A stretch of 64,000 nt of DNA from Eubacterium sp. CAG:252. Its GTDB lineage: Bacteria; Bacillota; Clostridia; Lachnospirales; Lachnospiraceae. The DNA lies in contig FR886343.1 in assembly GCA_000436535.1 (NCBI GenBank), positions 26,691 through 90,690 of the forward strand, read 5' to 3'. Position 1 is the stretch's first letter. Every line of letters begins with the position of its first letter. Under the pieces are notes generated by a model. It was not told the DNA's origin. It made no database searches and saw nothing but the letters and a program-made list of their open reading frames with translations. Position numbers and translations under genes: made by a program. Below are positions 2,501-58,974 of this stretch, in pieces.

Positions 2501-3870
2501 TGATAGTTAAGAAGTTTCAGGCACCAACAGAGATGGAGGCCATAGTTAAAGCAAGAGAAGAGCTTGGAAGCGCAGCAGTTGTGCTTAACATAAAGACAAT
2601 AAAGCAAAGAGGTTTTGCAAGATTATTTAAAAAGGATGTAGTTGAGGTTACGGCTGCGCTTGAGGAAAAAGATATAACTGATGGAATTAATAAAAGCAGA
2701 CCAACTTTTGATAACAGTCTGAACAGCCAGCAGGAGTCAGCTGTACATATGATTAATCAGAGTATGGTATCAAATGGAAGTACTTCTTCGATTAATCTTG
2801 TGGCAGATGATGATATATCAGTTACATCTGCTTCGGCTATAGAACAGAAGCTTGACAGTCTTCATAATCTTTTGCAGAATCAGGGCAGTGCTGCGTCTTC
2901 TTTTAACAGGTCACAGCCGGGTAATGTGCCTGACAGGACAGGCATACAGCAGGATTATAGATCTGCACAGGCACCGGCAGCAGAAGGATATATGAAAAGA
3001 ATGTCTGATATAAGAGATGATATATCAGGAGAAAATATAGAAATCCAGCAGGTAAGACAGAGAGAAAATGTCAATTACAAGTTCTTACAGCTTATATACA
3101 ATAAGCTTATAGATAATGAAGTTGATAGCAGGTATGCAGATGAGATAATAGGTGAAATAGAGAACTCGCTTAAGAAGGAGTCTAATCTTGACAGTATACT
3201 TTCAGCTGTATATCAGAAGATTATACTTAAGCTCGGAAAGCCAAAGACTATTACACTTGGTGATAAGGCAAAGGTTATATTCTTTATAGGTCCTACGGGT
3301 GTAGGAAAGACAACAACTATTGCTAAGATTGCCTCAAGCTTTAAGATAGAGAAGGAAGCAAAGGTAGCCTTTATAACGGCCGACACATACAGAATTGCAG
3401 CTGTTGAACAGCTCAATACATATGCATCCATCATAGATTGTCCGGTAAGCGTTGTATATTCAGTTGAAGATATGAATAGGAGTCTTTCTGAATATAAGGA
3501 CTACGACCTTATTCTTGTTGATACAGCAGGAAGATCCCACAAAGCAGAGGCACAGATGGATGAGCTTAAGGCATTTATAGCAGAAGTAGCACAAAGAGAA
3601 GATGAGTTTGATTTTGAATGTTATCTTACATTAAGTATGACAACAAAGTACAAGGACCTTAGAAATATTGCTGATAAGTATGACGATGTTGACTGGGCAG
3701 TTATATTTACGAAACTTGATGAAACATGTTCTCTTGGTAATATACTCAATGTCCGTATGTTGACGGATCGTCAGTTATCCTATACAACATCAGGACAGAA
3801 TGTACCTGATGATATAGAGGTTATTAACGAACAGGGAGTTGCCAAGCAGTTACTTGGAGGTGGCGAATGA
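2500..3870 (+). CDS. flhF: Flagellar SRP-type GTPase FlhF
   Basis: P-loop GPTGVGKTTTIAKIA and an SRP54-like NG domain at the C-terminus. The ATG overlaps the flhA stop (TAATGA). Confidence 0.9.
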   Translation: MIVKKFQAPTEMEAIVKAREELGSAAVVLNIKTIKQRGFARLFKKDVVEVTAALEEKDITDGINKSRPTFDNSLNSQQESAVHMINQSMVSNGSTSSINLVADDDISVTSASAIEQKLDSLHNLLQNQGSAASSFNRSQPGNVPDRTGIQQDYRSAQAPAAEGYMKRMSDIRDDISGENIEIQQVRQRENVNYKFLQLIYNKLIDNEVDSRYADEIIGEIENSLKKESNLDSILSAVYQKIILKLGKPKTITLGDKAKVIFFIGPTGVGKTTTIAKIASSFKIEKEAKVAFITADTYRIAAVEQLNTYASIIDCPVSVVYSVEDMNRSLSEYKDYDLILVDTAGRSHKAEAQMDELKAFIAEVAQREDEFDFECYLTLSMTTKYKDLRNIADKYDDVDWAVIFTKLDETCSLGNILNVRMLTDRQLSYTTSGQNVPDDIEVINEQGVAKQLLGGGE

Positions 3871-17019: not shown

Positions 17020-17076
17020 TATAGATTATATACGATTTTAGATATAAGGCTGTGTATAATTAAATAAAAATATGAA

Positions 17077-17110
17077 CCATATCCTGCCGAAAAGCAGGAT
17101 ATGGTTTTTT
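17077..17110 (+). terminator. Rho-independent terminator after tsf
   Basis: CCATATCCTGC-cgaaaa-GCAGGATATGG, a perfect 11-bp stem, followed by TTTTTT. Confidence 0.8.
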
Positions 17111-17394
17111 GGTGGAAATATATTTGATTTAATACAATTAATATAAATTTAATGATAATACTTGAAATATAAAAGTGATATTGTTATAATATTTATAAGT
17201 TATATATGAGACGTTTTAATTTTGAATAATAATCATCCGGGAATTGGATTAGTTATGTCATATTTAGAAGCAGATATGTAATATTATGAGGCGTATAATA
17301 AGACAGGCTTATGGTATATACGAATTATAATATTGCACATATGTGATGCGCCTTATATGAAACGACAGTTGCATAAAAAGGAGAACAGAAGAGT

Positions 17395-27033: not shown

Positions 27034-30000
27034 ATGTATAAGTTTTTGGATGTTTTCAGAACATTGAAGCTGCCAGATGATATAAGAGTATATATGGAAA
27101 ATGTGGAGGTCACGAAGGTTTCGAAGACCTCCACTAATTCTCTTGCGAGAGTATACATTAAGAATGATAAAGTTATAAGTAAAAAGATTATATATAAGGT
27201 CGAAGATGCTTTAAAAAAGCAGATATTCCGTATACAGAATATGGATGTCAGGATTATTGACCGGTACAGGCTGTCAGAACAGTACACTCCACAGACTATT
27301 ATGGATGTGTATTATGACAGTATACTTTTTGAGTTAGAGAAGTACTGGACACTTGAGTATAATCTTTTAAAAAATTCAACGTGGGAGTTTGAAAAGAGCG
27401 ACCTTTTGGTGCTTACACTTGAAGATGGATTCCTTGCAAGAACATATGCTGATAATCTGACAGACTACTTTAAGAAAATATATCTTAACAGATTTGGTTT
27501 TGAGATAGATGTTGAGTATAGGTATTCACATAAGACGGAGAGTCACTATGAAAGAGAAAATGCACATAAGTTAAACTTGCGTGTAAAACAGATAGAGGAA
27601 CAGCTTCAGGCGGCAACGCAGAATGGTGAGGGAGATGCGAAGACTGTGAGTGAGGCTGATAAGAATAAGAAGAGAGCTGAACAGAAGGCGAAAGCAGCAG
27701 CATTTTTCAGTGAGAGAGGTGCCAGCGGAAAAGACCTTACAAGATACAGAAAGCCGGCTAATCAGGATGTTCTGTACGGTCGTGACTTCAATGATGAGAT
27801 AACTGCTATAGACCAGTTAGAAACACCTGTTGGAGAGGTGGTTATCAATGGTATGGTTATGAGTGTTGAGCCAAGACAGATAAGAGATGAAAGAACTATC
27901 CTTTCAATAGCTGTTACGGACTTTACAGACAGTATTATAGTTAAAATGTTTATAAAGAATGAACAGCTTGAGGATATATATAGTTTTGTAAAGGAAGGCA
28001 ATTTCCTTAAGATAAAAGGAATTGCAGCTATGGATAAGTTTGACCAGGAGATTACAATATCAAATGTTTCTGGCATAAGAAAAGGAACCGATAACAGAAG
28101 TGTAAGGACTGACCTTGCACTCAATAAGCGTGTTGAGCTACACTGCCATACTAAGATGAGTGATATGGATGGTGTATCTTATGCAAGCGATATTATCAAT
28201 CAGGCGATTAAGTGGGGACACAAGGCAGTTGCCATAACAGACCACGGGGTTGTACAGGCATTTACAGAAGCCTACCATACTATGCAGAAGCTCTGGGGTA
28301 AGTATGAGGCAAAGGGGGAAAAGCTTGACTTTAAGGTTATATACGGTGTTGAAGCATATCTTGTGGATGACACTAAAAAGATAGTAACTAATCCAAAGGG
28401 ACAGGACTTTGCGGGTGATTTCGTGGTATTTGACCTTGAAACAACAGGTTTCTCGGCACTTGTGGATAAGGTGATTGAGATTGGAGCTGTAAAGATTAGA
28501 AATGGAGAGATAGTAGACCGTTTCTCAACATTTGTTAATCCTAAAGTTCCAATATCCTTCCGAATAGAAAATCTTACGGGAATAAGCGACCAGATGGTTA
28601 TGGGTTCTAAGACTATAGAGGAAATTCTGCCGGAATTCCTTGAGTTCTGTGAGGGCTGTGTTATGGTTGCGCACAATGCTGAGTTTGATATGAGTTTTAT
28701 TATCAATAATGCAGAAAGACAGGGGCTTGAATTCTCACCATCATATATTGATACAGTGCTTCTGTCGCAGTTTCTTATTCCTGCACTTCATAATTATAAG
28801 CTGGATACACTAACTAAGCATCTTAATGTAGTGCTAGATAACCACCACAGGGCGGTTGATGATGCAGAGGCGACAGCGCATATATTCCTAAAGCTTATCA
28901 AAATGCTTGCGGACAGGGACATATTCACGCTTGATAAGCTCAATGAGGAGGGGGCGCTCGATGAAGAATCTATAAAGAAGCTACACCAGTATCACTGTAT
29001 TATTCTGGCAGCCAATGAGATGGGGAGAATTAATCTTTACAGACTTGTGTCAGCATCACATATGAAGTACTTTAACAGATTTCCAAAGATTCCCAAAAGT
29101 CTTGTGAACCAGTACAGGGAAGGCCTTATCATAGGAAGTGCATGTGAGGCGGGTGAGCTGTTCCGCGCCATGGTAAATGGACGTTCTGATGCTGAAATTG
29201 CAAGAATAGTAAGTTTTTATGATTATCTTGAAGTCCAGCCTATAGGTAATAACAGGTTTATGATAGAAAAGGAAGATTACTATGTAAAGGATGAGGAAGA
29301 CTTAAGAGATCTTAACAGGAGAGTTATATCGCTTGGGGAGAAGTTTGACAAGCCTGTTGTGGCTACGTGCGATGTGCATTTCCTTAATCCTGAGGATGAG
29401 ATATACAGAAGGATTATTATGGCGGGCAAGGGCTTTGATGATGCCGACAGCCAGCCGCCGCTGTATCTTCACACGACTGATGAAATGCTTCATGAGTTCG
29501 ATTATCTTGGAAGTGATAAGGCATATGAGATAGTTGTGACTAACACAAATAAGATTATGGATATGTGTGAGGAGATTATTCCGGTACGTCCTGATAAAAG
29601 ACCTCCTGTCATCGAGAATTCAGACCAGATGTTAAGAACTATATGTCATAACAGGGCACATGAAATATATGGACCTGAGCTTCCGGAGATAGTTACGGAG
29701 CGTCTTGAAAGAGAGCTTAATTCAATTATATCAAATGGTTATTCCGTTATGTACATTATTGCACAGAAGCTTGTGTGGAAGTCCAATGATGATGGCTATC
29801 TGGTAGGTTCAAGAGGTTCGGTCGGTTCTTCATTTGCAGCTACTATGGCTGGTATTACTGAGGTCAATCCGCTGAGTCCGCATTATCTGTGTCCAGAGTG
29901 CTATTACGTTGACTTTTATTCAGATGATGTAAAGAAGTTTGCGGGTGGTGCAGGTTGTGATATGCCGGATAAGTTATGTCCTAAGTGCGGACATAAGCTT

Positions 30001-31500
30001 AATAAGCTTGGTTTTGATATACCGTTTGAAACTTTCCTTGGTTTTAAGGGAAATAAAGAGCCTGATATTGATCTTAATTTCTCTAATGAGTATCAGAGTA
30101 AGGCACATGCCTATACAGAGGTTATATTTGGCAAAGGACAGACTTTCAAGGCGGGAACTATTGGTACAGTTGCAGAAAAGACTGCTTACGGATATGTATT
30201 TAAGTATCTTGAAGAACGTGGAAAGGTAAAAAGAAGATGTGAGATAGAGCGTATCGCAAAGGGCTGTATTGATATAAGAAGGACAACAGGACAGCATCCA
30301 GGTGGAATAGTCGTGCTTCCTATCGGTGATGAAATACATTCATTTACACCGATACAGCATCCAGCCAACGATGTGAAGAGTGGTATTGTTACAACACACT
30401 TTGATTACCACAGCATCGACCATAACCTGTTAAAGCTGGATATATTAGGACATCTTGACCCTACTATGATTCGTATGCTGCAGGATCTTACGGGTATCGA
30501 CCCTCTTGAAATTCCGCTTGACTCAAAGGAGGTTATGTCACTTTTTAAGGATACATCGGCACTTGGCATAAAGCCGGAGGATATAGGCGGCTGTAAGCTT
30601 GGTGCGCTTGGCATACCTGAGTTTGGTACTGACTTTGCCATGCAGATGCTTATTGATACCAAGCCACAGTATTTTTCTGACCTTGTACGAATAGCAGGAC
30701 TTTCACATGGTACTGACGTATGGCTTGGCAATGCGCAGACACTTCTTAAGGAGGGCAAGGCTACTATATCGACAGCTATCTGTACAAGAGATGATATTAT
30801 GATATATCTTATCCAGAAGGGACTTGAGAGTGAGCTTGCATTTACTATTATGGAAAAGGTAAGAAAAGGTAAGGGACTTACACCTGAATGGGAGCAGATT
30901 ATGAAGGAACACGGCGTTCCTGACTGGTACATATGGTCGTGTAATAAAATTCAGTATATGTTCCCTAAGGCACATGCGGCGGCATATGTTATGATGGCGT
31001 GGCGCGTTGCTTACTGCAAGGTATTCTATCCACTTGCCTATTATTGTGCCTACTTTAGTATAAGGGCAGATGCCTTTGATTATGAAAAGATGGCTATGGG
31101 CAGGGAACGGCTTGAATATTATCTTGATATGTATAAATCTAAGAAAGCAGATGGAACTATCGAAAAGACTGAGCTTGATGAGTACAAGGATATGCGTATT
31201 GTCCAGGAAATGTATGCAAGAGGCTACGAGTTTACACCGATTGACATATATAAGGCGAAAGCAAGAAGCTTCCAGATAATAGACGGAAAGATAATGCCAT
31301 CCTTTAAGGTCGTATCCAAGATAGGTGAGTCGGCAGGTGAGTCTATAGAGATAGCGGCAAGGGACGGAAAGTTCTTATCAAAGGATGACTTAAGGCAGCG
31401 TGCCAGGATAGGTCAGACGGTTATCGAAAAGTTAAGTGAGTTGAAGCTGCTTGACGGAATGGCAGAGAGCAACCAGTTGTCTTTGTTTGATGTTATATAA
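27034..31500 (+). CDS. polC: DNA polymerase III PolC-type (Gram-positive replicative polymerase)
   Basis: 1488 aa; PHP domain, 3'-5' exonuclease domain (FVVFDLETTGF...HNAEFDMSF...HRAVDDA) inserted in PHP, zinc finger CPECYY...CPKCGH, and a polymerase core. Confidence 0.97.
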   Translation: MYKFLDVFRTLKLPDDIRVYMENVEVTKVSKTSTNSLARVYIKNDKVISKKIIYKVEDALKKQIFRIQNMDVRIIDRYRLSEQYTPQTIMDVYYDSILFELEKYWTLEYNLLKNSTWEFEKSDLLVLTLEDGFLARTYADNLTDYFKKIYLNRFGFEIDVEYRYSHKTESHYERENAHKLNLRVKQIEEQLQAATQNGEGDAKTVSEADKNKKRAEQKAKAAAFFSERGASGKDLTRYRKPANQDVLYGRDFNDEITAIDQLETPVGEVVINGMVMSVEPRQIRDERTILSIAVTDFTDSIIVKMFIKNEQLEDIYSFVKEGNFLKIKGIAAMDKFDQEITISNVSGIRKGTDNRSVRTDLALNKRVELHCHTKMSDMDGVSYASDIINQAIKWGHKAVAITDHGVVQAFTEAYHTMQKLWGKYEAKGEKLDFKVIYGVEAYLVDDTKKIVTNPKGQDFAGDFVVFDLETTGFSALVDKVIEIGAVKIRNGEIVDRFSTFVNPKVPISFRIENLTGISDQMVMGSKTIEEILPEFLEFCEGCVMVAHNAEFDMSFIINNAERQGLEFSPSYIDTVLLSQFLIPALHNYKLDTLTKHLNVVLDNHHRAVDDAEATAHIFLKLIKMLADRDIFTLDKLNEEGALDEESIKKLHQYHCIILAANEMGRINLYRLVSASHMKYFNRFPKIPKSLVNQYREGLIIGSACEAGELFRAMVNGRSDAEIARIVSFYDYLEVQPIGNNRFMIEKEDYYVKDEEDLRDLNRRVISLGEKFDKPVVATCDVHFLNPEDEIYRRIIMAGKGFDDADSQPPLYLHTTDEMLHEFDYLGSDKAYEIVVTNTNKIMDMCEEIIPVRPDKRPPVIENSDQMLRTICHNRAHEIYGPELPEIVTERLERELNSIISNGYSVMYIIAQKLVWKSNDDGYLVGSRGSVGSSFAATMAGITEVNPLSPHYLCPECYYVDFYSDDVKKFAGGAGCDMPDKLCPKCGHKLNKLGFDIPFETFLGFKGNKEPDIDLNFSNEYQSKAHAYTEVIFGKGQTFKAGTIGTVAEKTAYGYVFKYLEERGKVKRRCEIERIAKGCIDIRRTTGQHPGGIVVLPIGDEIHSFTPIQHPANDVKSGIVTTHFDYHSIDHNLLKLDILGHLDPTMIRMLQDLTGIDPLEIPLDSKEVMSLFKDTSALGIKPEDIGGCKLGALGIPEFGTDFAMQMLIDTKPQYFSDLVRIAGLSHGTDVWLGNAQTLLKEGKATISTAICTRDDIMIYLIQKGLESELAFTIMEKVRKGKGLTPEWEQIMKEHGVPDWYIWSCNKIQYMFPKAHAAAYVMMAWRVAYCKVFYPLAYYCAYFSIRADAFDYEKMAMGRERLEYYLDMYKSKKADGTIEKTELDEYKDMRIVQEMYARGYEFTPIDIYKAKARSFQIIDGKIMPSFKVVSKIGESAGESIEIAARDGKFLSKDDLRQRARIGQTVIEKLSELKLLDGMAESNQLSLFDVI

Positions 31501-31639
31501 TTTTGACCCGCTCCAATATGAGCATAAAAGTGGGGATAGTCCAACGATATGCGAATATTAGGTGGAATTGTGGGAGTACGTGGCACGGAACAATCCGTAG
31601 GTACCATAGGTGGATAAATGACCTTGTGACTCTGGTATC
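31501..31639. repeat. Copy A of a repeated structured intergenic element, about 110-nt conserved core
   Basis: The core at 31507-31613 is about 88% identical to 38537-38646 (copy B). It contains the nested inverted repeats CCAATAT...ATATTGG and GGATTGT...ACAATCC and the hairpin ACGG-aacaat-CCGT. It begins immediately after the polC stop codon. Confidence 0.6.
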
Positions 31640-31764
31640 TAATTTAAAGTATATTATGTTGCATATATTCATATATATGTGGTATATTGTGTAAGTTGCT
31701 GGTGTATCAATCTGTTTATACAGGTTGATATGCCTTTTGTATGAATAATATCATGAGGTGAAAA

Positions 31765-32241
31765 ATGTTAAAAAAGTATCTTATATGTTTTTTAGTATCT
31801 ATGGTACCTATTGTCGAGCTTAGAGGAGCTATTCCTATATCACAGGGTATGCAGCTTCCTTTGTTACAGTCTTATATAATATGTGTAATTGGTAATATGC
31901 TTCCAGTACCTGTTATATATTTTTTTGCAAGACGTGTTCTTGAATGGGGAGCTGACAAGAAGTATATTGGCAAGTTCTTCACTTTCTGTATTGAAAAAGG
32001 ACACAAGGGTGGAGAGAAGTTAAAGAAGAAGGCTGGTAACGGACTTTTTATAGCACTTCTTTTATTCGTTGGAATTCCAGTTCCAGGAACAGGTGCATGG
32101 ACAGGAACACTTGCAGCAAGCTTTCTTGATATGGGCTTTAAGAAGAGCGTAATCGCAGTTCTTGGCGGCGTGCTGCTTGCAGGAGTTATTATGGGACTTG
32201 CATCGGCGGGATTATTTACAGCACTGTTTAGTCTGTTTTAA
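31765..32241 (+). CDS. Small multidrug-export-like membrane protein (Sm_multidrug_ex/COG2426 family)
   Basis: 4 to 5 TM helices; N-terminal PIVELRGAIP motif typical of this family; RBS GAGGTG before the ATG. Confidence 0.65.
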   Translation: MLKKYLICFLVSMVPIVELRGAIPISQGMQLPLLQSYIICVIGNMLPVPVIYFFARRVLEWGADKKYIGKFFTFCIEKGHKGGEKLKKKAGNGLFIALLLFVGIPVPGTGAWTGTLAASFLDMGFKKSVIAVLGGVLLAGVIMGLASAGLFTALFSLF

Positions 32242-32299
32242 GACAAAGGGAAATTTGACAGAGCTATAATGAGTGATTGCGTTCAGGCATATTTGATGA

Positions 32300-32575
32300 A
32301 GAACGGACGACATAGAATAAGCGGATGCCTATAGCACAGACGGTATTCGACACCAGAAGATTTAATTTACGCGGGCAACGAGCTAAAGTCATATGCGGGC
32401 ATATGACCTTGGCGACTGCCTCGATAACAATAAGAAACACGTTATGCGGGTTTCTCATTATTGGTTATTTCTAAGACTTTTCATATAGGTATTAACTGCG
32501 ACCGCTACCGTTTGATACGGAACGTCCTGTCCCATACCGGGCTTCCACAGACATCCGCTTATTCTATGTCTGGCT
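32300..32575 (+). ncRNA. Candidate structured non-coding RNA or MITE-like element, class unknown
   Basis: It sits in a 600-nt ORF-free stretch. A perfect 19-bp helix forms between 32309-32328 (GACATAGAATAAGCGGATG) and 32552-32570 (CATCCGCTTATTCTATGTC) and encloses about 220 nt. Internal hairpins are GTCATATGC/GCATATGAC and CGTT-tgatacgg-AACG. GC content is higher than in the flanking DNA. Confidence 0.3.
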
Positions 32576-32764
32576 GTGATAAATTGTATTAATTATGATA
32601 AAGTTAGTTAATAAAAAGAGTTTTATATTGAAAATCTGTTACAAAAGCCTTGGGATTATGTGTTTTTTCGATATTATAAAACAGGTAAAACCCAGTATTT
32701 ATGCGGGTTCAGAAGAAAACTTCAATTTTTCTTCAAAATTTTTGAAAAAAATTGAAAAAAGTGC

Positions 32765-32799
32765 TTGACGGATTGGGTATTCAGGTGTATTATAATGAA
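32765..32799 (+). promoter_or_regulatory. Candidate sigma-A promoter for the tRNA-Glu gene (-35 TTGACG, 17-nt spacer, extended -10 TGtATTAT), with upstream A-tracts
   Basis: TTGACGgattgggtattcaggTGtATTAT lies about 40 nt upstream of the mature tRNA 5' end and is preceded by an A/T-rich UP-like element. Confidence 0.5.
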
Positions 32800-32839
32800 G
32801 TGCTCAGCGATAAGCGCTGACACAAAGTATTAAAGATAT

Positions 32840-32911
32840 GGCTTATTGGTCAAGTGGTTAAGACGTCGCCCTCTCACGGCGAAGACAGGGGTTCGACTCC
32901 CCTATAAGCTA
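32840..32911 (+). tRNA. tRNA-Glu (anticodon CUC)
   Basis: Manual cloverleaf: 7-bp acceptor stem with G1.U72, D arm with G18G19, anticodon stem TCGCC/GGCGA with loop CUCUCAC (anticodon CTC), T arm AGGGG-TTCGACT-CCCCT, discriminator A, no encoded CCA. The overall sequence closely resembles Firmicute tRNA-Glu. Confidence 0.85.
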
Positions 32912-32934
32912 TTCTGAGTTATATTCGACTGACA

Positions 32935-32967
32935 AGAGTGGGCATTGATGTCCACTCTTTCGTTTTT
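32935..32967 (+). terminator. Hairpin plus U-tract after the tRNA
   Basis: AGAGTGG-gcattgatgt-CCACTCT followed by TTCGTTTTT. Confidence 0.6.
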
Positions 32968-33048
32968 ATCCTGAAATATTTATCAGGGTCTGGCGGTATA
33001 GGCATATGTGAATGTGATTCAGTATCAAATTATAAGAAAGAGGTAGAC

Positions 33049-33513
33049 ATGGGTAAGAGAGAAGATTACGAGGCTAAGACGGAACAGCTTATAGCGCCTA
33101 TCATCGCTGCCAATCATGTGGAACTTTTTGATGTGGATTACATTAAGGAAGGTCAGGACTGGTACTTAAGAGTCTATATCGACAAAGAAGGCGGAGTCAC
33201 TATAGATGACTGTCAGGCGGTAAGCAGAGCTTTCAATGAGGTGCTGGATAAGGAGAATTATATTGCAGACCAGTATATATTTGAGGTGAGTTCTCCGGGA
33301 CTTACAAGACCTTTAAAGAAAGAAAAGGATTATGAAAAAAGTATAGGACGACTGTTAGACATTAAGCTTTATAAGCCTGTTGAGGGTAAGAAGGAATACG
33401 CGGGTATCCTTAAGGAATATAATAAGGATATTATTATTATAGAGTCTGATGATACACAGATAACTATTGAAAGAAGCAATCTTGCTATGATTAGATGGGC
33501 TTATGTAGACTAG
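33049..33513 (+). CDS. rimP: Ribosome maturation factor RimP
   Basis: The conserved RimP fold begins at MGKREDYEAKTEQL after RBS AAAGAGG; the track ORF is over-extended 5'. Directly upstream of nusA. Confidence 0.9.
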   Translation: MGKREDYEAKTEQLIAPIIAANHVELFDVDYIKEGQDWYLRVYIDKEGGVTIDDCQAVSRAFNEVLDKENYIADQYIFEVSSPGLTRPLKKEKDYEKSIGRLLDIKLYKPVEGKKEYAGILKEYNKDIIIIESDDTQITIERSNLAMIRWAYVD

Positions 33514-38407: not shown

Positions 38408-38429
38408 AAGCAAAGTTAACATATTCAAA

Positions 38430-38460
38430 GTATCCGGAGTATATGTGTCCGGATACTTTA
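38430..38460 (+). terminator. Hairpin after infB with a weak U-tract
   Basis: GTATCCGGA-gtatatgtg-TCCGGATAC followed by TTTAATGTT. Confidence 0.5.
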
Positions 38461-38470
38461 ATGTTACAAA

Positions 38471-38664
38471 GATACCAGGGTCAAAAGGTCTAAACCCACA
38501 TGAGCTTGCTCATAGGTGGGTGAATGACCTTGGGACCCGCCCCAATATGAGCATAAAAGTGGGATGACAGTCCCACGATATGCGAATATTGGGCAGGATT
38601 GTGGGAGTGCGCAGCACGGAACAATCCGTAGGTATCATAGTTGGGGGCTTTTGACCCCAATATC
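38471..38664. repeat. Copy B of the repeated structured intergenic element, bounded by short inverted repeats
   Basis: The core at 38537-38646 is about 88% identical to 31507-31613. It is flanked by GGGTCAAAAG (38478-38487) and CTTTTGACCC (38648-38657). It occupies the infB-rbfA gap, where B. subtilis has ylxP. Confidence 0.6.
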
Positions 38665-38710
38665 TTACAAAATATGAATTATAATAAAGTGTCAGAAAAA
38701 GGGGAGCATA

Positions 38711-42399: not shown

Positions 42400-42404
42400 T
42401 TATA

Positions 42405-42456
42405 AGGGCGGAGTTGTACCTATATCATATGTACAACTTCGCCCTGCTTTGTGTTT
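42405..42456 (+). terminator. Rho-independent terminator after rpsO
   Basis: AGGGCGGAGTTGTAC-ctatatcatat-GTACAACTTCGCCCT, a 15-bp stem, followed by GCTTTGTGTTT. Confidence 0.75.
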
Positions 42457-42674
42457 ATATAGCTGGTGAATACTCAGGCAGTGATATATGCAAAGGTTTC
42501 CAGAAAATAGACAAAGCAACAAAGAGAATAACAGAAGGAATAACCGAGACCACTCAAAAGAATATCATTTTGTGAAATATTAAAGTATTTATTGTTATGG
42601 TGTTTTTTTGAGTTGTTTCGGACCTTCTGTTCAATAACTAAACTAAACAGCCAAAAGGCAGAAACGAGGAAAGC

Positions 42675-51948: not shown

Positions 51949-53841
51949 ATGGTTTTTAGCAAAGAACAGAAGTCGGCGATACATTTTAAGGACGGACCTG
52001 CACTTGTACTTGCGGGTCCGGGTTCTGGAAAGACTACAGTTATTGTAAACAGAATAATAAGTCTTATAAAGGAACACAGTGTTTCCCCGTCTTCGATATT
52101 GGTCATTACATTTACAAAGGCGGCTGCAAAGTCTATGCGGCAGCGTTTTCTGTCACTTACGGGTGAGTCTTATGTATCAGTAACATTTGGTACATTCCAC
52201 GCAGTATTTTTTTCTATGCTGCGCCATGCTTACAATTATTCAGCAGGTTCAATAATAAAAGCAGATATACAGTACAATTATATAAGAAATGCAGCTATGG
52301 GCTTTGAGCTGGAATATCCCGATGAAAATGAGATGGTAACAGGCATTATATCGGAGATAAGCCGTGTAAAAAGCAACAGGCTGTGTATAGATACATATGA
52401 GGCAGTAAGCTGTCCAGCAGCTACATTCCGTCTTATATATAAGAAATATGAAAATATGCTTATAAGCAGAAGAATGATAGATTATGACGATATGATTATT
52501 ATGTGTTATGAGCTGTTATCTAAAAGAGCAGACTATAGAAAGGCGTGGCAGGATAAGTATAAGTATATACTTGTGGATGAATTTCAGGATATTAATAAGG
52601 CACAATATGATACCATAAAGCTTATAGCAGGAAAGCAGGCTAACCTTTTTGTGGTAGGTGATGATGACCAGAGCATATATGCTTTCAGGGGGTCAAAGCC
52701 TGATATTATGCTTGGACTTTCCACAGAGTACAGAGATATTGTACAGATGTATCTTAATACCAACTACAGGTGCTCATCAGAGATAGTGGCAGGCGCGCGT
52801 TCGCTGATAGAATATAATAAGGTGCGCTTCGCAAAGGATATAAGGTCGTGTGGAATGTGTTCAGGCAGAATTAAAGTGTGCAAAATGGCAGATATAGAAG
52901 AGGAGGCGTTGTATCTGTCAAAGGAAGTAAGGGAGCTTATTGCAGACGGAATTAAGCCGGAGGAAATAGCAGTCATATCACGCACAAATATAATAAGCAA
53001 CATATATTATACAAGGCTTAACAGCGATGGTGTGGCGTGCAGGACATTAACAGCAGTACATAATATATATGATAGCTGGCTTATGCAGGATATAGCCGCA
53101 TATATGAGATTATCACAGGGGATGTATGATAAGGAAAATGCAGTCAGAATAATTAACAAGCCGTCAAGATATATAAAGAGGGCACTGATTACACAGCCTT
53201 TTAACTTTGAACACTTAAGAAAATGCTATGACGGCGATGAGGGCCTGATAAAGATTATTAATGATATGCAGTTTGACATAAAAATGCTTTCACATATGTC
53301 ACCTTATGCAGCGGTTAACTACATTCTTAAAGGCATAGGTTACGAGGATTATATAAATGAAGAGATAATAAGAAAACGTCTGAATAAAGAAGAGGTCTAT
53401 GCCAAGCTGACAGAGATAAAGACATTGTCCAGAAAATATATGGATATAAAACAGTGGCTTAAATATATAGATGAACAGGCAGAAAAAACGGAGCGGGAAA
53501 ATAAGAGTGACAAAAGACAGGGTAATCAGAAAAACAGTGATGAAAAAGACAGTGCCGGAGCAGTAAATATATACACAATGCACAGCTGCAAAGGACTAGA
53601 ATTCAAAGCTGTATTTATAATGGATGTGTGCGAAGGCATAATACCGTACAATAAGGCGGTGCTTGATAATGAGATAGAGGAGGAGAGAAGACTTATGTAT
53701 GTTGCCATGACAAGGGCAAAAGAAAAGCTGTATCTTGTATATCCCATAAAGAGATATGGACACGATACAGCCGCTTCACGTTTTATAAGTGAGATAGATA
53801 AAGCTTATATAGAAAGCTTTGACTACTCCACGAATTCATAG
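51949..53841 (+). CDS. UvrD/Rep-family ATP-dependent DNA helicase (short form)
   Basis: Walker A GPGSGKT, motif II VDEFQD, and motifs III-VI (VVGDDDQSIYAFRG, YRCSSEI, TMHSCKGLEF, VAMTRAK). At 630 aa it is shorter than PcrA. Confidence 0.85.
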   Translation: MVFSKEQKSAIHFKDGPALVLAGPGSGKTTVIVNRIISLIKEHSVSPSSILVITFTKAAAKSMRQRFLSLTGESYVSVTFGTFHAVFFSMLRHAYNYSAGSIIKADIQYNYIRNAAMGFELEYPDENEMVTGIISEISRVKSNRLCIDTYEAVSCPAATFRLIYKKYENMLISRRMIDYDDMIIMCYELLSKRADYRKAWQDKYKYILVDEFQDINKAQYDTIKLIAGKQANLFVVGDDDQSIYAFRGSKPDIMLGLSTEYRDIVQMYLNTNYRCSSEIVAGARSLIEYNKVRFAKDIRSCGMCSGRIKVCKMADIEEEALYLSKEVRELIADGIKPEEIAVISRTNIISNIYYTRLNSDGVACRTLTAVHNIYDSWLMQDIAAYMRLSQGMYDKENAVRIINKPSRYIKRALITQPFNFEHLRKCYDGDEGLIKIINDMQFDIKMLSHMSPYAAVNYILKGIGYEDYINEEIIRKRLNKEEVYAKLTEIKTLSRKYMDIKQWLKYIDEQAEKTERENKSDKRQGNQKNSDEKDSAGAVNIYTMHSCKGLEFKAVFIMDVCEGIIPYNKAVLDNEIEEERRLMYVAMTRAKEKLYLVYPIKRYGHDTAASRFISEIDKAYIESFDYSTNS

Positions 53842-58628: not shown

Positions 58629-58974
58629 TTGACATTATCTGGTATATGAGTTATTATCTAAACAATTGATAATAAGTAAATGCTACGAAGAGGAATATTA
58701 GATAAGAACCGGCTTCAGAGAGCTGTCGTATGGTGCAAGACAGTGGAAGGAACTTATTGAACTCGCCTTGGAGCTGCTACCCGAAATATTACGATAGAGT
58801 AGACGTAGACGGAGGCCGACCGTTAAAGCGGACAGAATATAATACACATATTGTTTACAGATGTGTACGTATTCAGTGAGAGCGTAGTGAAAGCTACGAA
58901 TAAGAGTGGTATCGCGTGAGATTATATCTTTCGTCTCTTAGGGGCAGGTGTCCTTTGGAGGCGGAAGTTTTTTT
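58629..58974 (+). promoter_or_regulatory. T-box riboswitch leader (leucine specifier) with promoter and terminator, upstream of leuA
   Basis: Promoter TTGACA (58629-58634), 17-nt spacer, TATTAT (58652-58657). Stem I carries AGAGA and GA motifs and a candidate specifier CUU-A or CUC (both Leu). The T-box sequence AATAAGAGTGGTATCGCGTG at 58899-58918 matches the AGGGUGGNACCGCG consensus at 12 of 14 positions. The terminator is CTTTCGTCTC-ttaggggcaggtgtcctttg-GAGGCGGAAG plus TTTTTTT (58928-58974), and its 5' strand overlaps the T-box. Confidence 0.6.

Follow-up and report, generated by a model that had tools for sequence, protein, structure and literature searches.

A long gap between a small exporter gene and a tRNA-Glu gene of Eubacterium sp. 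CAG:252 contains one copy of a structured repeat of ~98 nt, made up of two hairpins and present in many genera of the Lachnospiraceae. The gap lies in a 64,000-nt stretch of contig FR886343.1 (positions 26,691 to 90,690), to which we refer throughout as the window. We observed that these 98 nt are the structured and conserved part of the gap, and not the 260 to 600 nt put forward in an earlier note on this DNA, which had described the region as a large ORF (open reading frame)-free segment closed by a perfect 19-bp helix and reminiscent of the ROOL/GOLLD class of RNAs. The gap as a whole is probably a lineage-specific composite insertion that carries a single copy of a nonautonomous structured repeat, similar to repetitive extragenic palindromic (REP) sequences and MITEs (miniature transposable elements with inverted repeats). 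By a crude ORF call, 58 of the 59 ORFs in the window are on the plus strand, and the gap between the exporter and the tRNA is the largest of the 58 gaps (696 nt, with a median of 40 nt).

A blastn search with the core of the gap against phage records matched only positions 32361-32458, with ca. 80% identity, in two unverified fecal scaffolds. In both of them, the matching ~95 nt were intergenic and located directly after a hairpin followed by a run of Ts. Scanning one genome per GTDB species with the pattern GAGCYAAARTC-N(6-36)-GAYYTTGGCGAC recovered at least 120 loci of the repeat family. Among the matches listed, all the named hosts belong to the Lachnospiraceae (Blautia, Mediterraneibacter, Dorea, Lachnospira, Coprococcus, Oribacterium, Anaerostipes, Fusicatenibacter, Oliverpabstia, Mordavella, and others), with the exception of one contig of a metagenome-assembled genome (MAG) of Tidjanibacter. 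This contig, classified as Tidjanibacter massiliensis (Bacteroidota), starts inside the element (locus L056, 6-41) and is most likely a binning artifact. Several genomes have multiple copies, with at least three to five in M. glycyrrhizinilyticus f23, Mordavella An582, Lachnospira hominis NSJ-43, and ERR1430482-bin.2. When the whole gap was compared by BLAST with all the loci of the family, similarity was limited to positions 32354-32458 of the window, and the copies had no upstream or downstream sequence in common among themselves, which indicates that the ~98-nt unit is free-standing; the possibility that it is the end of a larger parent element was discarded for the same reason. No Rfam 15 model matched the family, either in 13 of its loci at the gathering threshold or in one canonical copy at E ≤ 10, and no published description was found in the literature on the sequence itself, on Lachnospiraceae repeats, or on terminator-associated repeats.

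The first hairpin (H1) begins with a helix, P1, in which CGCG-N-GCA pairs with UGC-CGCG. It is followed by an asymmetric internal loop with ACGA opposite GAC, and since GA is found on both strands of the loop, tandem G.A pairs are possible. A K-turn (kink turn) at this position was rejected on our own inspection because of a register misfit, caused by an extra C on the nonbulged strand. The family consensus of the second helix, P2, is GCCAAAGUC/GACCUUGGC; 114 of the 118 sequences have an A.C mismatch in it. Beyond P2 there is a bulged A and then a tip of free sequence, of 4 bp or longer, usually closed by a CUUG loop, the length of the tip being variable. A short linker (AUAAC in the main subfamily) leads to the second hairpin, P3, which starts 2 to 5 nt after P1, spans 25 to 45 nt, opens with AAC or AAU, and closes with GUU or AUU. 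Its sequence is variable and differs between subfamilies; it is always paired. A relationship of P3 with attC sites was considered and rejected, as all that it has in common with R''/R' is AAC...GTT.

Covariation is strong in both hairpins. Over the 118 sequences, 140 cells had changed on both sides of a pair, compared with 36.8 ± 4.9 in shuffled alignments, and 86.7% of the cells were paired, compared with 28 to 42% when the partner columns were slid by 1 to 3 positions. RNAalifold recovered the same two hairpins from 21 representatives, with compensatory changes in 14 of 29 pairs. P3 has changed its sequence independently many times, with 79 distinct versions and a mean folding z of -5.6. 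It should be noted that the invariance of P2 is partly built in, since the scan pattern required the P2 core. The features of the copy in the window are as follows:

32364-32463, plus strand: one copy of the ~98-nt two-hairpin repeat (H1 and P3)
32370-32423, plus strand: hairpin H1 (from the alignment of R1, our model of H1, pair counts, and RNAalifold)
32382-32413, plus strand: P2 and the tip of H1, the GTCATATGC/GCATATGAC hairpin
32428-32463, plus strand: hairpin P3, CAAUAAGAAAC...GUUUCUCAUUAUUG (from folding and RNAalifold)

This copy is ca. 80% identical to many other copies of the family, retains every structural feature, and is the only one in the 64-kb window (63.7 bits and E = 3e-19 with R1; 48.7 bits with nhmmer). 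Positions 32380-32416 fit the core GAGCYAAARUC ... GAYYUUGGCGAC, which forms P2 with its A.C mismatch, and P1 is formed by 32370-32377 with 32417-32423, closing the ACGA/GAC loop. P2 itself is GCUAAAGUC/GACCUUGGC, again with the conserved A.C, and continues into a lengthened tip and an apical loop. The local hairpin GTCATATGC/GCATATGAC, already noticed from the sequence, was found here and corresponds to the elongated P2 tip. Three pairs are weak in the strain of the window (C.U at 32421, U.G at 32442, and A.C at 32456), and other strains have Watson-Crick pairs at these positions (C-G in most of them at 32421).

The position of the family in the genomes is remarkably constant with respect to terminators. 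A terminator-like hairpin with a T-run was found within the 50 nt just upstream in 79% of the copies, compared with 5% at a control position, and the signal holds in 21 of the 28 copies in which the nearest upstream ORF is on the other strand. Among the 120 listed copies, the upstream ORF is co-oriented in 92, with its end typically 40 to 80 nt away from the unit; for the downstream ORF the two orientations are about equal (58 co-oriented and 53 opposed), and only 7 copies are located between divergent genes. The orientation of the unit also follows the local majority direction of the genes (65 versus 23), and therefore a bias linked to genes and another linked to replication are inseparable. 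No consistent gene association was found among 568 neighboring ORFs, nor any transposase-like cluster among those within 2.5 kb of the copies, although loci of 8 kb would miss a single distant REP-associated tyrosine transposase (RAYT). As the copies go with terminators and not with tRNA genes, the adjacency to a tRNA, to which the earlier note had attached importance, looks incidental. Carriage by plasmids or phages was rejected, as the plasmids of PLSDB gave 0 matches and, of 2.9 million IMG/VR contigs, only 4 carry the family; as for the ten matches labeled “phage” in GenBank, every one is an unverified fecal scaffold from one study.

Partial and tandem arrays were also found, with a constant 5' boundary and a variable 3' end (1.0, ~1.25, and 2.3 units). 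About 10% of the copies are followed directly by the truncated 5' half of a second unit (L063, L070, L090, L124, L022, L072, and L087), and one locus has 2.3 tandem units (L074, 3134-3359). At L022, degenerate fragments of the unit pile up ahead of gyrB. In one subfamily the copies are flanked by a second palindromic repeat, AATCGAG...CTCGATT (~35 nt), that takes the place of the terminator hairpin (L039, at ~3040-3075 and 3160-3200; L051; L135), and L039 and L135 have a 112-nt upstream block in common.

The rest of the gap is not conserved beyond the species. The exporter and RimP proteins encoded on either side of it are identical to those of Eubacterium sp. CAG:252/Lachnospira sp. The gene order around it and the segments within it are the following:

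27034-31500: polC
31468-31606: Clostridiales-1 RNA (RF01699), 57.6 bits, overlapping the polC stop codon
31765-32241, plus strand: small multidrug-export family membrane protein gene (PF06695, from the Pfam annotation of an identical protein)
32242-~32720: lineage-specific stretch of ~480 nt without a counterpart in sister species
32309-32327: left arm of the perfect 19-bp inverted repeat
32464-32551: filler specific to the species, with small local hairpins, separating the repeat copy from the right arm
32552-32570: right arm of the perfect 19-bp inverted repeat
32571-32720: AT-rich spacer (GC 0.25 to 0.29), missing from the sister species (no alignment to L006-L017 and L151)
32721-32838, plus strand: conserved promoter region of tRNA-Glu, which also includes a leader hairpin
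32765-32770, plus strand: -35 box of the tRNA-Glu promoter, TTGACG
32788-32793, plus strand: -10 box of the tRNA-Glu promoter, TATTAT
32839-32912, plus strand: tRNA-Glu(CUC)
32934-32959: terminator-like hairpin after tRNA-Glu(CUC)
from 33049: rimP, followed by nusA, ylxR, and a gene of the L7Ae family

In the sister species, whose exporter protein is 87 to 93% identical (loci L006-L017, L151, and L156), the order exporter, tRNA-Glu, and rimP is kept with gaps of 320 to 500 nt, and the alignment with the window begins only at ~32724 (L010 and L014) or ~32745 (L151 and L156), i.e., at the tRNA promoter, a region that has 76 to 90% identity. It follows that the ~480 nt between 32242 and ~32720 are lineage specific and, judging from these alignments, an insertion specific to the Lachnospira lineage of Eubacterium sp. 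CAG:252. Neither R1 nor nhmmer found the repeat in the gaps of the sister species. No intermediate state was detected among relatives with a 92 to 97% identical exporter; the element is whole or fully missing, or the contig breaks near the exporter. What follows the exporter stop codon, up to the next promoter, differs in every species examined: a plain terminator hairpin in L006, almost nothing in L010, and a 190-nt stretch with a perfect 13-bp hairpin in L151. This last hairpin, located directly after the exporter gene (~2035-2068 in L151/L156, with an 8-nt loop), is unrelated in sequence to the arms in the window. Two other relatives (L149 and L152), with exporter proteins 95 to 96% identical and a different synteny, have a perfect 19-bp hairpin with a 35-nt loop at the same place (1998-2090 in both L149 and L152). 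Homology between this hairpin and the arms in the window was rejected, as the Smith-Waterman scores (21 to 23) are at the level of the shuffle mean (21.9). Just 5' of the -35 box of tRNA-Glu there is a 36-nt A/T-rich near-palindrome, TTCAATTTTTCTTCAAAA/TTTTTGAAAAAAATTGAA (32721-32756); its preservation in the sister species L010, L014, and L151 suggests a possible UP element or regulator site for the tRNA-Glu/rimP-nusA promoter.

Within the species, 14 contigs from different metagenomes carry the stem-closed unit (L001-L005, L142-L148, and L154, some of which cover the segment only in part), with 94.5 to 98.8% identity and all of them colinear with the window, i.e., the segment was found in a single fixed orientation. 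Polymorphism is, if anything, more frequent in the stem-closed segment (17 sites in 262 nt) than on either side of it (~10 in 336 nt). Three of these contigs break inside the 262-nt segment (L148 starts at 32380, L144 ends at 32499, and L154 ends at 32506); they are low-coverage assemblies, and the breaks may reflect either the low coverage or the confusion of the assemblers by the repeat and its hairpins.

The 19-bp inverted repeat is real. The sequence GACATAGAATAAGCGGATG (32309-32327) and positions 32552-32570 are perfectly reverse complementary, and the two arms are the sole matches to the 19-mer in the 64 kb with up to three mismatches, for a chance expectation of 0.04. The right arm was located correctly in the earlier note, but the range given for the left one, 32309-32328, was one base too long. 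The repeat can be lengthened to 22 nt at 95% identity and, through three G.U pairs, to 26 bp as a minus-strand RNA. As had also been noticed, the interior is richer in GC (0.43 to 0.47) than the AT-rich stretch on the right (0.25 to 0.29). Neither the window nor ~1 Mb of other Lachnospiraceae loci contained a further copy of the arms with up to three mismatches, the 28-nt right junction is confined to the present locus in the metagenome collection (7 contigs), and BLAST retrieved no homologues of the nonrepeat parts (32242-32362 and 32455-32700) in any of the fetched loci. The 19-bp helix is a feature of one species, with no sign of conservation, and nothing indicates that the 260-nt stem-closed unit, a composite confined to this species, is an RNA gene. 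As for the origin of the arms, they could go back to an old inverted duplication, a view suggested by the three inner mismatches, every one of them a transition, or else to a long-stem hairpin with a loop that was filled afterward; we favor neither.

Small ORFs are present in the gap. There is an ORF of 64 codons on the minus strand (32264-32458), which qualifies the description as ORF-free; no Shine-Dalgarno sequence is visible ahead of it. Another ORF of 57 codons is found on the plus strand (32595-32768). None of eight small ORFs of the gap, including these two, had a Pfam match below E = 0.08, and the reading of the gap as a pseudogene was rejected on these grounds.

We compared the region 31400-33100, on both strands, with all 4227 models of Rfam 15 by cmscan at E ≤ 10. 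No match was found to ROOL, GOLLD, raiA, OLE, HEARO, 6S, tmRNA, RNase P, or the signal recognition particle (SRP) RNA; the only matches were the tRNA, Clostridiales-1, and, inside the gap, a subthreshold TwoAYGGAY plus noise. The resemblance to ROOL, GOLLD, raiA, and OLE consists of a large ORF-free gap in a Firmicute (ROOL and GOLLD are sometimes near tRNA genes). However, there is no covariance-model match, the conserved structured part is ~98 nt instead of 500 to 600, and the 260-nt unit is confined to one species. A large ornate noncoding RNA (ncRNA) is therefore not supported, and of the proposed structured RNA there remains an interior hairpin that belongs to a covarying ~98-nt element, shorter than anticipated and outside the classes that had been named. 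The TwoAYGGAY (RF01731) match, on the minus strand at 32449-32627, resembles a family that occurs in gut Clostridia, but its score is below the gathering one (29.5 bits, E = 0.045, versus 43), it has many noncanonical pairs and a loop ACAGGAC where AYGGAY would be expected, and it spans the AT-rich spacer and not the stem-closed unit. A TwoAYGGAY RNA was rejected accordingly. Over the whole window, at the gathering threshold, only the tRNA, two Clostridiales-1, a T-box, and the C. difficile sRNA n00280 were recognized, and these RNAs occupy three of the five other gaps larger than 260 nt (one T-box and two Clostridiales-1). The first Clostridiales-1 match begins 33 nt ahead of the polC stop and occupies the gap between polC and the exporter; the second, a strong one (149 bits, 38470-38637), is located in the 303-nt gap 38408-38710. 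The T-box leader (58676-58941, 112.5 bits) occupies the second-largest gap of the window, and n00280 matches at 53650-53750 with 85.7 bits. The gaps 17020-17394 (375 nt) and 42400-42674 (275 nt) had no Rfam match at the gathering threshold.

Three other explanations concern the arms and what they enclose. One would be that the whole 262-nt stem-closed segment is a species-specific ncRNA, most plausibly transcribed on the minus strand from a promoter-like site at 32611-32583, just ahead of the helix, and closed by its 19 to 26 bp. The 281 nt around the inverted repeat do fold beyond shuffles, more so on the minus strand (z = -7.2, with -102.5 kcal/mol) than on the plus strand (z = -4.9), the arms are invariant over the 14 contigs save for C32311T in L001, and the weak TwoAYGGAY match is on this strand. 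Nevertheless, the segment is missing from all the sister species examined, only the inner repeat has homologues, and variable sites are about twice as dense in the interior as in the flanks, the C allele at 32513 breaking a predicted plus-strand pair without compensation. Besides, the promoter-like site scores 9 of 12 and the density of such sites is not above that of shuffles (8 found, 5.4 expected), no minus-strand terminator was found for the segment, and three G.U pairs on one strand are expected by chance about once in four times after transitions. A species-specific RNA of this size seems improbable to us, and the unit cannot be taken as a conserved one. It is slightly easier to imagine, although still unlikely, that the arms are the termini of a solitary MITE, or the stem of what was once the exporter gene's long-stem terminator or palindrome, with insertions that entered its loop afterward, the 98-nt repeat included. 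Perfect 19-bp terminal inverted repeats, as in a MITE, are present, and the relatives do have long perfect hairpins after the exporter (19 bp in L149/L152 and 13 bp in L151/L156, with different sequences) in a region that differs in every species. Against it, the sequences next to the arms (ACGGAC on the left, TGGCTG on the right) do not form a direct repeat that would mark a target-site duplication, the arms have no second copy in the window, the Lachnospiraceae loci, or the metagenome contigs (by the right junction), the right arm is not trailed by a T-run, and the likeness to the L149 hairpin is that of chance. A multicopy MITE with the 19-bp arms as termini was consequently rejected, and the alternative of a mobile-element remnant that had been proposed is a step in the right direction as regards the inner 98 nt, but not as regards the arms. 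The geometry, with 19-bp inverted repeats around ~220 bp in a gut Firmicute, is also typical of an inverton that would flip a promoter toward or away from tRNA-Glu/rimP-nusA. This we consider very improbable: a flipped left junction had 0 matches in the metagenome contigs and all 14 orientable contigs of the species are colinear with the window, a weak test at the assembly level since assemblies report only the majority orientation, and the tRNA has its own conserved promoter outside the segment. With the arms restricted to a single locus, no direct repeat, and no flipped junction, both the multicopy MITE and the inverton are unsupported.

A different matter is whether the ~98-nt family is selfish DNA at all. 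Its members, the window copy among them, could be functional RNAs, acting either in cis at the 3' end through terminator read-through (as a backup terminator, an exonuclease block, or a protein tag) or as a multicopy small RNA, which we regard as possible but rather doubtful. What speaks for it is the strong covariation of the two hairpins and the retention of irregularities (the ACGA/GAC loop, the possible tandem G.A, the A.C in 114 of 118, the bulged A, and the CUUG loop) while the length of the P2 tip varies, together with a position and orientation that are fixed relative to terminators. Within the species, the alleles at 32421, 32442, and 32456 restore pairs. P3 has an excess of G.U pairs on the plus strand (46, against 19 on the minus strand), and 83 of its 97 copies have their better fold on the plus strand. 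For H1, on the other hand, the better fold is that of the minus strand (89 of 100 copies), because the conserved A.C is a G.U there, and both mismatches are tolerated about equally (44 G.U versus 41 A.C, or ~24 with the misaligned short variants removed). As these signals conflict, the assignment of a strand from G.U versus A.C was dropped. The position after a plus-strand terminator implies that a plus-strand RNA would be made by read-through only, and little transcription is expected there; the units have no conserved promoter. The lack of a consistent gene association, the widely varying copy number between genomes (with one copy in the 64-kb window), and the tandem and truncated copies, which resemble the dynamics of repeats, also argue against a functional RNA.

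We still prefer the composite insertion with one copy of a nonautonomous repeat, although several observations weigh against it. No pair of empty and filled sites, target-site duplication, or mobilizing enzyme was found, and mobility is something that we infer. The covariation, the conserved noncanonical features, and the CUUG loop fit a selected RNA as well or better. The P2 core was demanded by design in the family scan, and H1 and P3 favor opposite strands. The window copy has no upstream terminator, with three Ts in the last 12 of the upstream 50 nt and no hairpin. That the 19-bp arms are perfect in nearly all strains could point to upkeep by selection, and the segment between them is very stable on the minus strand, with a promoter-like site adjoining the helix. 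Under the composite insertion, the unit, which has no coding capacity and no linked transposase among the neighboring ORFs examined, would behave as a REP/MITE-like repeat that either moves into positions directly behind terminators or persists in them, hairpins in single-stranded DNA or RNA being presumably what is recognized. Wherever it occurs, it could add a further structure at the 3' end and so block read-through or exonucleases. In the window, because the copy lacks the usual terminator and is located inside a palindrome specific to this locus, the 262-nt structure would most likely now have a passive role, that of a structured spacer or insulator separating the exporter gene from the tRNA-Glu/rimP-nusA promoter.

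For the locus itself the result is mostly deflationary, as the largest gap of the window does not contain a ROOL/GOLLD-like RNA, and the interest lies in the repeat family. A covarying two-hairpin element, often multicopy and right behind terminators, is found in many genera of the Lachnospiraceae, a dominant family of the human gut, and is missing from Rfam 15. If mobile, it would be a new case of terminator-targeted insertion in abundant gut commensals and may add to the breaks of metagenome assemblies and to annotation noise; if a functional RNA, it would be a candidate 3'-end regulatory or stabilizing module. In either case, a model of the family would keep future scans from flagging single copies as orphan ncRNAs. 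We would tentatively entertain that the unit represents an undescribed class of structured elements. This might be a mobile element only two hairpins long that recognizes terminators as group IIC introns do and is mobilized in trans by an enzyme, for which the 1.3- and 2.3-unit arrays with a fixed 5' boundary are a hint of a rolling or copy-out mechanism, or else a widespread functional RNA coupled to terminators, possibly with a conserved protein-binding internal loop.

Some known systems have part of these features. Group IIC introns insert directly downstream of intrinsic-terminator motifs, i.e., an inverted repeat and then Ts, in a fixed orientation (PMC1702495), and our unit is likewise located directly behind a terminator hairpin and Ts, in a fixed orientation. 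However, it is only ~98 nt long, has no ORF, and lacks both the GUGYG 5' end and the catalytic AGC geometry of domain V; no Rfam group II intron model matched either of the two stretches compared at E ≤ 10, one with the copy in the window and its flanks and the other with a canonical copy. A group IIC ribozyme was therefore rejected. Miniatures of the IS200/IS605 insertion sequences (PATE-like) also have two subterminal hairpins, no classical terminal inverted repeats, and an orientation-specific insertion. The target of IS608 is TTAC. In our alignments, a conserved TTAC, which resembles this target, precedes directly the 5' end of the units of the main subfamily (A), and the other subfamilies lack it. 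The sense-strand bias near co-oriented genes would be compatible with a single-stranded lagging-strand template, as in IS200/IS605, but no TnpA or TnpB was found near the unit. There is also a likeness in general character with REP/REPIN, BOX, RUP, Correia, and the bcr1 of B. cereus, all of them short, noncoding, multicopy, hairpin forming, and extragenic, concentrated at the 3' ends of genes. As in those, positions between divergent genes are rare and tandem or partial copies occur. The unit differs in its sequence and host clade, in having two hairpins, the first irregular and conserved in sequence, and in being placed strictly and in one orientation behind the T-run of a terminator with no RAYT-like or other transposase found nearby; a GTAG-like tag is found in some subfamilies only. 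It seems, then, that this unit adds to the known small structured intergenic repeats, with an association to terminators that is both unusual and precise.

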